NCBI GenBank assembly: GCA_905178155.1
Contig: CAJINV010000004.1
Location: forward strand, 7,145,146-7,209,145
Reading direction: 5' to 3'
Length of the DNA stretch: 64,000 nucleotides
Origin: Amoebophrya sp. A120
Lineage: Eukaryota; Protista; Dinoflagellata
The notes beneath the pieces are model-generated. The model searched no databases, was not told the DNA's origin, and saw nothing but the letters and a program-made list of their open reading frames with translations. The translations under genes were made by a program, and so were the position numbers. This document shows, in pieces, positions 6,001-60,096 of the stretch. Positions within the stretch are counted from its first letter, which is position 1; each line of letters opens with the position of its first letter.

Positions 6001-9000
6001 GAGACCTCCTGGAACTCGCCCCAGTCAATCTCCTCGTTCTTCGTTTGTCCGGGCTGGAGGTCCAGCATCGCGGACCAGGCGTCGACGATGGTGCCGTACT
6101 TGGTCAGGAGGCACTTTTTCAGCTCCATCAGATCGTCTTTGAGCGGCTTGTCGAGGTGTTGCATGCCGAGGAAGCCCGCCTCTTCACCACCCAGAACAAC
6201 CCACAGGGTCTTCATGTTGCCGGCGTAACTGTTTTTTTTGGAGGGTTTTTGGAAGATTTTTGTGTTTCGTCCTGCTTGTGCTTTCGCATAATGATAATTG
6301 GTTTCCACTATATAAGCTGTTGGTTTCCAACCATACTGATCTGGCTGTCGAACAACAACAGACATACAAACACAATGTCCCTTTTCTGGCCAGAAAAGTA
6401 TGAATCTGGAAAGAATTGTGCAACGCCAGTGTGCGCGCTCTGACAGAATACTGCCATATCGAGCCCGCATAGCGAGGTAGTTGCCTACTTTCGTTTACCA
6501 CAGATTAATTACGGATTCTCGCACAAAAAAAGCGAGCGCCCGGCCTATTCTGTGGAGAATTTTTAACACTAACAGTACAGGAAATGAGAAGTGCAACTAC
6601 GACGTGTTGGATCTTTGCCTTTGATTTTTCTCCGAGGAATAGGTGCTCTACAACTTCACAAGGATCTCGTGGCCGCGTGCGACTGTGAAACGTACTGCTT
6701 CACAGCTGGTACTAGACATCGCGTGTGTAGAAAGATCCTCGTGTCGTAGACACTTGCTTCCAGTACTTGGTAACCGGCACAATCTGAACCTCGCGATGAA
6801 TCGGAGGACTAAGAAGCGACCGCAAAACCAAAAGCTAGTACTAGCACATCTACATCATCTTCAAAAACAAAGCTCTATCTAACTATACCCTAATGTCCTC
6901 GCCGCCTGCATGAATTCGTTAAAGGACAGCCTTCCGTTGCCATCACTATCTAACCCGAACCGCCAGGCCCGGGCCATGCTGCCGTGCCGGCGCACGATCT
7001 GCTGCTTAAAGCCCTCTTCGGATTTCGCGGCGACGATCTGCGCCTTCTTGGCCCGCTCCTCCTGCACCAGCGCTTCCCGCTTCTGCAGACCCATAAACTG
7101 CGAGATGCGGTTGGAAAAGCTCATGGACTGTCGCTCCTGGAAGGTCATTCTCGACTTTTCCGCGGAGGTAATCTTCGGCGCCAGGATCATCTCGTGGTGG
7201 CCGGACAGGTAGTTTTTCATCAGGAATGGATCCAAGTCGCCCATGGTCAGGTACTGCCGACCCTGCTCGAGCAGAAAAGTGTAGAACAGCTGCTTGGTGT
7301 CACCGGTGTACCTGATAGAAAGGATAAAGGATTCGAGGTGTTCATGAGGATCACTGAGTGATGTAGATGTGAGGTTGTAGAAGATGCATGAGAAAAAAGT
7401 TCTTGGATCGCCAAATGTGCAACACAAATTCCCATAGAACAACAAGCTGTACCCCAGCTCCTTGGCTTTCCTCTTGAACTCTTCGAGTTCTAACCGGCCG
7501 GAGCGATCCTCATCGAGCCCTTTCTTCCAGGCGTCCACTAGGTTTCCGTATTTCTCGTTACAAAGACCCAGGAAGGTGTCGATGCGGGTTTGTGCCTTAA
7601 AGGGGAATCATTTTTTCGGTGTCAAAAGGCTGTATATGATTGAGTGGGTGTGTGGAATACACACCTATTAGTTACACATGCTGTTCCACCAACTTGACAA
7701 TTTCATTGCGTATGCGCGCACGACAACAAAGGCAAAGCATCAGTTCGTGTTGCACAAAACCAACAAAAAAAATCCTTTGTACATCCGGGTCCAGCTCTCC
7801 GAGCGAAATGTTCGCCGATTTGTCTTCATCGAGGGTTTTAAACAAAAGCGAGATGTTCCCTGTGTAACCCAAGGCTCGCGCTGCGTTGCAGAACTCGACA
7901 AAAGCGAGCTTGTTGCCCTCGTTCGTAACTTCACTGCACATCCCAGCGCGCCACCCGCGGGCGACACTGCCGTATTTTCTTCGCAGCATCTCCTTAAAAC
8001 TACGCACGTCCTGGGGCCCGAGATCTTCACCCGTGTCGATGTAGGACGCCCGCTTGCGGAGCATGGCTGTTTTTTATTGAGTTTAAACTTCTTGCTGGAC
8101 GAGGGAAGAATTGCTGATATCATGCGTACACTATGGAGAAACTGGAACTGCCCCGATGCACGAGACACAATCATCTTCTGAACCGCAATTTAATGATCAT
8201 CATGTACACACACTGACACACAGGTCGTGTTCTTCTTCTTACAGTAGTAAGTTCTCGTTTTACTCAACATAAAAATTCCAATACAGAATTTCCTTTGCGC
8301 CAGCAGCTTGGCCCTTTTCAGCTGATTTCTGATTGTCTCCTGCTGCCTCTCTTCAAAGGACATCTCCATCGGGCCCTTCCGTGGGCTGGTATATCAAAAG
8401 GAAAAATCCCCCCTCCCCATATCAAAAGGAGGTTTCTGATGCTGGATTTGCGTACACAAATCAGCTTTGCATTGCAGAGCGGCACTGCGAGCAGATCTCC
8501 AGGCTGAGTAGGGGCGTAAGTGTCTAGCTGCTCAGCATGGCAAACGGCTAACCTTTAGGCCCAACAGCATGACAAATCGCCTCCATAACGGGGCGGAAGC
8601 TCCTGCCCTTGTCTTCTTGCAAGACAGTTGTGATTTGTGACCTCAAATCTGCAACACAAATTTTCGAAGTCATACCTTTTCAATATGGGGAGGGGGGATT
8701 TTTCCTTTTAATATGGTAGCCGGGGAATTTTCCGGACTCTCCTCCGCCACCTGGTCTTTACTCGGATCCAGCAATATCCTATGCAAAAACGTCCCCGCCC
8801 CATAGTGAAGATGGGGGATTGGCTAGACAAATCCACAAGTTTTGGGTGTCTTGCATGACAAATTTGGACTCGTAGCGTAGTGCTGTTTGAGCTAGCTCTG
8901 CAGCATTACAGACTCAGTATATCCTGCTGATTGGAGCATGACAAATTGCAAAGCACGATTGAAAAATGCTTCTCATGGGGCTCCGCATGAGAAACAATTT

Positions 9001-58226: not shown

Positions 58227-60096
58227 CTATTTGTCGCTGCAGGGGCCCCCTCGCAATAGGGCCGGCACGTCAACGCCCAACTCTTCCTGGTAGTGCTCAA
58301 ATCTTTCAGACATCGCTTTGTACGCGTCCATGCTCTTCAACTTTCTAATGAGCTCCACTTCCGTGACGGTAGGTTTTGCTTTTTGGAGTTCTCTAGCAAA
58401 CTCCTCCAGTATTGCCCACTTCTTCCAGCCTGTCTCCGACATACGCATTCGCTGGCTGCCCCAATCTTTAGGTTTTTCCAAACGGGAAGAAGAGGCCGCC
58501 AATGCGGGCACGAGGACGCTGTGGACGAAGTGAAGGCTTTCGCTTTGACCTTGTTCCGCTGAGGGCGAGGAAATTAAAGGTACGAACCCCATCTTGGCCC
58601 AGAAAACATGGGCATCGCGCACGGCATCCAAGTGTAGATCCGAAATGCCGGCTCGGAGCGGAGATCTTGATCTTCCCATTCGCATTTCTGCAAGACAAGA
58701 ACCCGACGCCATCTCTTCGCAGCTGTCGATGTCGTGTGGTTGTTGAGCAGGCTTGTGAAGAGCGTAGTTCATGATTCTCAACATGAAGAGGAGCCCGGCG
58801 CCGTTTCCCGATTCCTCGGCTGCCACGTTGCCGATTTTCAAAATGCCGTCATCTTTTTGCCCGCAGCCACATCCACCCTCGCTTGTCTGTGCTGTCTGCC
58901 GCGTCTGGCGCGGCTCTATCCACTCTTCAAGAACTAGGTTAGAAACTTGGAACTTCCACTCTTCATCCTGATCCACGTCCAGCAATCTTTTACCATCTTG
59001 ATTCCGTTTGAAGTTCTTGATCCTGAAGGGCTTCGTCAAAAGTGCTCTGTCCAACATCGACCTTGACCTCCGCGGCGCCTGCTCAAGAACAGATGTGGTC
59101 CTCGCAGTTGCACTTGAACTACAACTACCCGAAGCAGGTTCAACATCACCGTCGACGTCAAACTGCAGCAGATACGGAGAGCCTTGGCGGCCCAGCTGCA
59201 TCCTACACGGGCCTGCGTTCCAGTTCTTCAAGTTCTCCTTGTGGAAAACTTGCAGCCACGGCGATTTCGCGACCACCGCTGGGATTTTCCAGATTGTGAT
59301 GCGACCAGGAGTTGTACCGATGCTGGCGGTCGTGTACAACAGGTTTTCAACTTGCTTTTGTTCTTCCACTTGATGTTGGTTATCTACTTCCGGCGCTTCA
59401 TCGTCTTTATTCACCTCACTATTGTTCTCCCCGAGGACCCCAAAATTATCCTGTGCAAAAGTATCGTACTCGTAGTAATTGCATTTATGCATTACAAATT
59501 TTTTTCCGAAGGTAAATCCGCATGACAAATTTTATTTCTCATGCTGAGGAAATTTGTAATGCATCTATACGAGTACCACGATACTTTTGCAATGCATAAA
59601 AGTGATGCATCCCCAATACCATGTCGAGCTGTTCCTTCGTCACGCCCAAAAAGCTATCGTCTTCCTCGTGCTTGATGTCCCCTTGTAGTTTCATCCGTGG
59701 CTTTTCATCGTCCACCTCGAAACGCCGAACAAGGCTGGCTTCTGGGCTAACGTAGAGTAACCGGGGTCCTTTGCACAGGTGGTGGACAAAGTTGTCGCGC
59801 TCTTCAACGCTTGCAACTTCGGCGCCGAAAAACGTAGCAGGAGCTTCATCTCCGCTGTCGCTGTCCTCTCGTGTAGGACTGGGCGGGTCGTTCGGGTTTT
59901 TCTTGAGCTTAAGGTTAATTCTGTGCCATCCTGATCCTCCTGCTCTCTGGGCGGGATCGCCCGAAGAAGAACTTGCTCCGGGCCCGGCAGTTGCACCGCT
60001 AGAAGAAGCAGTGGAAACAACAGCCAGACCAGCAATACACCACACGGCATGCAGGCAGAAGAACCCGCTGGTCGTCGTGGGGTATAGTCGTGCCAT
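58227..60096 (-). CDS. Putative secreted GNAT-like acetyltransferase
   Basis: Hydrophobic N-terminus. GNGAGLLFMLRIM (motif A-like) and LHLDAVRDAHVFWAKMGF (motif B-like). Two exons joined across 59447-59598 (GMHHFGVLG). Confidence 0.6.
59447..59598. mobile_element. Introner-like TIR element, family B
   Basis: TATCCTGTGCAAAAGTATCG...CGATACTTTTGCAATGCATA, TSD AAAAT/AAAGT. Confidence 0.88.

Follow-up and report, generated by a model that had tools for sequence, protein, structure and literature searches.

What could unite families of short mobile elements that no longer align with one another? The question is raised by a 64,000-nucleotide window of Amoebophrya sp. A120 (contig CAJINV010000004.1, positions 7,145,146–7,209,145), the whole stretch of DNA analysed here, in which 33 curated elements with terminal inverted repeats (TIRs) make up 6,846 bp, or 11%. 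The initial annotation saw copies of GCAT(G/T/C)ACAAAT in elements with different TIRs and proposed a common protein-binding code, either subterminal transposase sites or a mark for removal. We report that the motif is real, that its sites keep step with the turn of the double helix across families, and that it resembles the binding arrays of known transposases.

Judged from sequence, the elements appear to be the introners known from strain A120, which they match. Published A120 introners are non-canonical introns with TIRs beginning TAT, followed by seven variable bases and a run of A; they carry short direct repeats and fall into many strain-specific families (PMC7789003, PMC12130899). The strain holds about 30,000 of them in some 1,950 families, and the text of the genome paper leaves their mobilisation and splicing unexplained, with no transposase in A120 (PMC7789003). 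The window elements share the TAT-N7-AAA type of TIR and are likewise removed at non-canonical junctions that fall inside a short direct repeat, and their lengths (110, 150, 156, 209, 217, 235, 262, 279, 306–308 and 322 bp) match a table of Gozashti et al. (PMC12130899). They differ in that Farhat et al. describe direct repeats of 3–5 nt (PMC7789003), whereas the element plus 5 nt is removed at all 11 junctions seen here. The RPL28 encoded in the window is 63% identical to the protein of strain A25.

One motif recurs across element families

The window contains 45 exact copies of GCAT[GTC]ACAAAT (23 on the plus strand, 22 on the minus strand) against a mean of 0.13 and a maximum of 2 in 100 dinucleotide shuffles; the motif is thus far from equally frequent in the background. 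All but two copies, at 33415 and 62386, lie inside the curated elements. An exact copy is present in 23 of the 33 elements and a site scored by a position weight matrix (PWM) in 32, the true motif being the looser 11-bp GCA(T/A)(G/T/C)A(C/G)A(A/G)(A/G)T. Six of the seven positions first quoted for it were exact (8567, 8936, 21326, 21357, 28261 and 28429), and the seventh, 52223, is really 52221. These examples fall in families F6, F3, F5, F4 and FA, whose masked interiors cannot be aligned, and so bear out the repetition of the motif across families.

The statistics were drawn from about 375 kb of DNA, made up of the window and 37 metagenome loci. A scan for two motif copies 15–25 bases apart matched at least 134 stretches, from which 37 long loci of one record set (JACKZZ01, 311 kb) were used, three overlapping and all short loci being dropped. 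Because loci were picked by a motif pair 26–36 bp apart, that spacing is favoured in them, and each family was hence counted once. An element detector requiring near-TAT ends and a target-site duplication (TSD) of at least 4/5 called 227 elements in the 37 loci and none in two shuffled windows; the loci carry window families at 75–88% identity. Window and locus elements together number 260, in 18 families, with two of the calls being merges of neighbouring elements. The motif occurs in 16 families, both motif-free families being singletons; two or more sites are found in 244 of the 260 elements, and sites on both strands in 189.

Elsewhere, a viral scan gave two AT-rich coding matches with no elements in them, and 14 inspected metagenome loci outside JACKZZ01 were tandem or REP-like (repetitive extragenic palindromic) repeats; in most loci of this kind the element finder made no call. 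The same 11-mers also lie inside apparently bacterial repeats (L018, L028, L042, L096, L113, L130 and L133), either tandem or of a kind we take to be REP-like, and we treat this as coincidence.

The proposed comparison of elements with canonical introns and intergenic DNA revealed a steep gradient. At a PWM score of at least 12 bits, called elements hold 15.5 sites/kb, family remnants 14.3 and the rest 0.31, the PWM having been trained on element consensuses. Outside elements, exons carry 6 sites against 9.9 in shuffles, which is background; 59 short predicted canonical introns carry 14 against 1.2, with 11 introns having any and 48 none; intergenic or long-intron DNA carries 61 against 9.6. 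These classes come from our simple gene model, in which few canonical introns are RNA-supported and one predicted boundary differs from the RNA junction. The motif is therefore at background level in exons, while in other non-coding DNA its sites are several-fold above chance. Decayed elements probably explain much of this excess, because several residual clusters retain visible pieces of F1 or FA ends and 24 of the 59 predicted canonical introns start with GTAT. Residual sites sometimes form 32–33-bp pairs with no remaining TIR.

Motif sites share a helical phase

Phasing was computed on 16 family consensuses with 79 sites. Same-orientation pairs (n = 70) peak at a period of 10.5 with a cosine of 0.49, the best of 2000 random placements over periods 6–20 being 0.40. 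Opposite-orientation pairs (n = 71) peak at 10.5 as well, with R = 0.55 at an offset of 8.3 bp and a null best of 0.42. The fine period is 10.44 bp (bootstrap 10.36–10.54). Since 10.4–10.5 bp is the helical repeat of B-DNA, the motif sites would face one side of the duplex. The spacing analysis suggested with the original observation thus yields a 10.4-bp period followed across families.

Particular distances recur within this period. Twenty-one same-orientation pairs lie 31–33 bp apart where 2.4 are expected, and in the window alone 21 of 70 such pairs do so. Back-to-back pairs cluster at 8–9 and 38–43 bp, facing pairs at 23–24, 41–44 and 55–57 bp; an 18/49-bp step and a 62–65-bp step are unenriched (p = 0.43 and 0.93). 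Phasing remains when pairs at 30–34 bp are removed (cosine 0.31) and survives omission of any single family. With one family per layout group, 108 combinations gave a median of 0.45, the worst case being reached by 9 of 500 nulls. Outward-reading sites also keep a phase relative to the end of the element (R = 0.53, n = 34, p = 8e-5), lying at about 40, 50, 61, 71 and 82 bp.

The motif is conserved like the element ends

Among 228 copies in seven families, divergence from consensus is 0.097 in the motif, 0.104 in the TIRs and 0.261 in the other interior. Copies with decayed TSDs exceed intact ones, family-centred, by 0.023 in the motif (0.005–0.042) and by 0.023 in the interior (−0.004–0.051), a noisy test, with zero inside the interior interval and TIR decay masked by the detector. 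This one comparison is consistent with selection acting among source elements and neutral decay thereafter; a private-substitution test of post-insertion selection was uninformative, being saturated in large families.

The families were called unrelated, which holds for their interiors and overstates the case for their ends. With motif and ends masked, neither blastn nor family profiles found a cross-family match, so the families do not all align to one ancestor; the test is weak for the short families FA, FB and F7, which also lose most of their own members. With TIRs unmasked, contact appears only for F1–F13, F4–F14 and F8–F11. Among the family-consensus ends, 35 of 36 begin TAT (T at position 1 in 35, A at position 2 in all 36), followed mostly by C/G and then an A run at 11–15 (A at positions 11–14 in 26–30 of 36), a count to be read knowing that the detector itself demanded near-TAT ends. 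The TSD is 5 bp, matching 5/5 in 197 of 251 detector calls, and no TSD sequence preference is evident in the window and loci. Because this end signature, the 5-bp TSD and sometimes the site layout (F4, F8, F11) are common to families, one deep superfamily is a better description than unrelated lineages. In FA and FB a motif-like 11-mer occupies TIR positions 4–14; only in these two is TAT-N7-AAA a copy of the motif, and a general rule to that effect was rejected.

Elements and sites in the window

All entries are TIR elements unless stated otherwise. Site coordinates give the G of the motif, with > for the plus and < for the minus strand. The first element entered computations with shortened ends (5742–5967); its true ends come from sequence and alignment.

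5729..5982, F11, sites 5789<, 5826>, 5881<, 5921>
8392..8713, F6, TSD TGGTA, sites 8442<, 8567>, 8651>
8775..9054, F3, TSD AGCAA, sites 8853>, 8903>, 8936>, 8985>
9541..9802, F1, 4 sites
21284..21432, FA, sites 21326>, 21357>, 21381<, 21399<
22887..23144, F1, 5 sites
27877..28025, FA, 3 sites
28078..28478, F5, 6 sites including 28261>, 28429>
28986..29143, FB, 2 sites
30574..30817, F1, 5 sites
30866..31016, FB, 4 sites, one within the TIR at positions 4–14
31160..31439, F3, 4 sites in a single orientation
34032..34176, FA, tubulin gene, spliced, skip of 150 = element + 5
34317..34485, FA, tubulin gene, spliced, junction pinned by imperfect TSD
34707..34882, FB, tubulin gene, spliced, junction pinned by imperfect TSD
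35063..35218, FA, tubulin gene, spliced
35356..35496, F10, tubulin gene, spliced
35556..35821, F1, tubulin gene, spliced
37444..37594, FA, spliced, 4 sites
37669..37877, F2, spliced, 4 sites
38735..39000, F16 (singleton), spliced, 0 motif sites, natural negative control
39076..39327, F1, spliced, 4 sites
41488..41697, F2, spliced, 3 sites
49122..49372, F1, 3 sites
49803..49953, FB, 4 sites, one within the TIR
50068..50220, FA, 3 sites
51943..52092, FA, 4 sites
52143..52358, F4, sites 52182<, 52221>, 52310<
52408..52556, FA, right end decayed, 2 sites
52615..52881, F1, 3 sites
53139..53312, FA, 3 sites
53466..53628, FA, 2 sites
59447..59598, FA, 4 sites
7312..7452, minus strand, predicted canonical GT-AG intron without TIR, boundaries from our gene model, sites 7386 and 7419 (33 bp apart), likely a decayed element
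33415..33425, minus strand, exact motif outside called elements
62336..62396, two divergent sites lying 41 bp apart in no called element, likely an element remnant

The tubulin gene is divergent, lies on the minus strand at 33799–35950 and is broken by six introners of four families. The arms of a perfect inverted repeat at 60572–60634, 31 bp each, are one base apart. By eye, local duplicated blocks of several hundred bases occupy 42240–46200, 53900–58200 and 31440–33370, and a short exon-like stretch occurs in three copies near 31440, 32710 and 33320.

A putative binding array for a mobilising transposase

A shared protein-binding code is supported because the motif is kept across 16 unalignable families, is conserved like the TIRs and is helically phased. 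Protein binding to the motif thus appears likely, and we hold it probable, with clear reservations, that the array consists of subterminal-type sites for a mobilising transposase, perhaps IS3EU/GingerRoot-like. The two to six copies in most elements would form a binding array on double-stranded DNA for a transposase complex common to all families. Several protomers on one helical face could bend the 110–320-bp elements and assist end pairing, and a DDE/integrase-type enzyme, IS3EU/GingerRoot-like by its ends, may act in trans on these non-autonomous elements. Selection would operate only during transposition, after which inserted copies would lose motif bases neutrally. For splicing, the ends would matter and not the motif, with the TIRs pairing and the cut falling one base ahead of TAT. 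Of the two forms of the proposed code, transposase-type sites thus fit, with binding putative, and a mark for removal fits poorly.

Subterminal repeats are a feature of several transposon systems, En/Spm, Ac and Drosophila Foldback among them. In the Emigrant miniature inverted-repeat transposable element, subterminal motifs are bound by Lemi1 proteins (PMC1636448), and the subterminal repeats of Muta1 raise binding and excision (PMC5499845). Like these, the window elements are non-autonomous and carry short multi-copy motifs internal to their TIRs, conserved with the ends. They differ in that sites, here of putative binding, fill the whole interior in mixed orientations and one helical phase across 16 families; Muta1 repeats are tandem (12 bp with 3–4-bp linkers) inside the TIR, with a TSD of 8–9 bp (PMC5499845).

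By their ends, the elements recall integrase-type transposons. TIRs and TA...TA termini are shared with IS3EU and GingerRoot, whose TSD is usually 6 bp as against 5 bp here (PMC10045372, PMC6839031). A 5-bp TSD is found in TDD-4 and TDD-5 of the Ginger2/TDD group, whereas Ginger1 and Ginger2 termini read TGTNR and those here TAT(C/G) (PMC2836005). Among 56 of their 58 A120 rows, Gozashti et al. list a family with TA/TA ends, a 5-bp TSD and integrase-like homology (PMC12130899). We found no mention of subterminal sites in the consulted text of the GingerRoot and Ginger papers (PMC6839031, PMC2836005).

Several observations weigh against a transposase array. Phasing points to a DNA-binding protein without saying which. 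Inward-reading sites have no significant phase from the ends (p = 0.17), element lengths have none (p = 0.46), and F3, F13 and F15 taken singly fit the phase poorly (0.00, 0.02 and 0.18). In most families the TIR 4–14 segment scores poorly as a motif, the comparison of old with young copies is noisy, and predicted canonical introns carry the motif at about 10 times the chance rate. No transposase or integrase Pfam match appeared in 172 of the 366 open reading frames (ORFs) of the window and loci, and Farhat et al., reporting putative transposases in A25 only, argue that transposases are not the general means of mobilisation (PMC7789003).

Screening for long TAT...ATA elements returned L013:505-1608, with F5-like ends, a GC-rich insert and no match in the one ORF scanned against Pfam, and one likely chance pairing. 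Introners with GC-rich inserts of 400–900 bp, probably nested elements, occur at L008:2129-2941, L013:505-1608 and L035:4568-5189.

A host protein as a possible reader of the array

The phasing data could also be accounted for by a host sequence-specific DNA-binding or architectural protein, with the elements exploiting bending, coding-DNA targeting or silencing escape; we regard this as possible, if doubtful. A common host factor would suit the presence of one motif in families whose TIRs have only the end signature in common, and also the excess of sites in intergenic DNA and predicted canonical introns and the occasional 32–33-bp pairs that lack TIRs. Predicted coding exons, with 51% of the bases in the window and loci, contain 223 of the 257 classifiable elements, and Amoebophrya encodes DVNPs (PMC7789003). 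On the other side, residual clusters with F1 or FA end pieces can be explained as fossils, and the larger GC-rich inverted-repeat elements at 47803–48842 and 10796–11657, with other termini, hold no motif site. We know of no sequence-specific binding by DVNPs. Nucleosomal DNA has a period of roughly 10.2 bp, which the observed interval of 10.36–10.54 exceeds.

A bolder version, which we consider unlikely, would give one host DNA-binding protein both tasks: it would polymerise on the array and wrap the 110–320-bp elements, mobilising introners with no element-encoded transposase and, during transcription, flagging them for splicing independent of U1. The array would then be an intron code at the level of DNA.

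Splicing takes place with and without the motif

All 11 elements tested (33700–42000) are skipped in contigs of runs X4–X7, which come from one sample and which we presume to be RNA; the same contigs also skip two CT..AC (GT-AG) introns in this interval. Each skip comprises the element plus 5 nt, the tubulin exons, once joined, form an uninterrupted frame of 355 codons, and both element orientations are spliced. Raw RNA runs X9 and X10 contributed 0 and 2 reads. Contigs of DNA run X1 run through the elements, and no single-element excision is seen among the 15 joints listed for that run, which has 469 further joints; DNA-level removal is unsupported.

A single junction offset is compatible with all 11 skips: the first base of the intron directly precedes TAT, and its last is the fourth base of the downstream TSD. 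This assignment rests on three imperfect-TSD elements (34317–34485, 34707–34882 and 38735–39000). The resulting intron start, N-T-A-T-G/C, resembles a GTATG donor whose first base is free to vary. We found no support for evolution of that first base toward G (5 upstream versus 3 downstream of 21). The GTAT starts of predicted canonical introns, together with an intron at L035:1246-1458 that begins with G plus an F11 terminus, suggest that introners turn into canonical introns.

Might a protein instead read the motif, either in the pre-mRNA or in DNA during transcription, and thereby define non-canonical introns for removal in a cell seemingly without U1 snRNA? Ten of the 11 spliced elements do carry it, sites on both strands in most elements would present it in either insertion orientation, and no U1 was found in either A25 or A120 (PMC7789003). 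Yet the motif-free element at 38735–39000 is spliced in all four runs (one case, one sample), most predicted canonical introns are site-free, and 12 of the 15 sites within them are antisense. Insertion orientation is balanced (118:102, p = 0.31), the motif decays after insertion like the interior, and single-stranded RNA offers no reason for 10.4-bp phasing. We judge this reading very unlikely.

Least credible is a motif with no binding role, stiffening an RNA hairpin through opposite copies or left over from an ancestral 31–32-bp tandem repeat: four elements do form much stronger folds than shuffled sequences (z −5.4 to −9.9), with opposite copies pairing in three of the four folds, an FA site pair that does not pair in them (53 and 77) shows covariation of the variable base (0.40 versus 0.30), and the layout of F4, F8 and F11 suggests deep common ancestry, but pairing requires complementarity rather than one fixed sequence across 16 families, the F3, F7 and F9 consensuses hold a single orientation, the FA pair that does form (35 and 77) lacks covariation (0.54 versus 0.51, p = 0.30), and motif and spacing persist where inter-site DNA has diverged past alignment, which is not neutral decay.

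Implications for introner biology

The phased motif array in these known introners is probably unreported. We found no mention of motif or phasing in the consulted text of PMC7789003, PMC12130899, PMC12005148 and PMC11282704 or in the supplements of two papers, and the 30 of 40 papers listed by a string search are, by their titles, unrelated; figures, Roy et al. 2023 and online sequence files could show it. One phased motif across families implies a single protein system acting on all of them, tying them into one superfamily, and offers concrete bait for finding the mobilising protein. It also separates two questions left by earlier work: the motif would belong to mobilisation at the DNA level, whereas for splicing the three pinned junctions suggest a cut fixed one base ahead of TAT.

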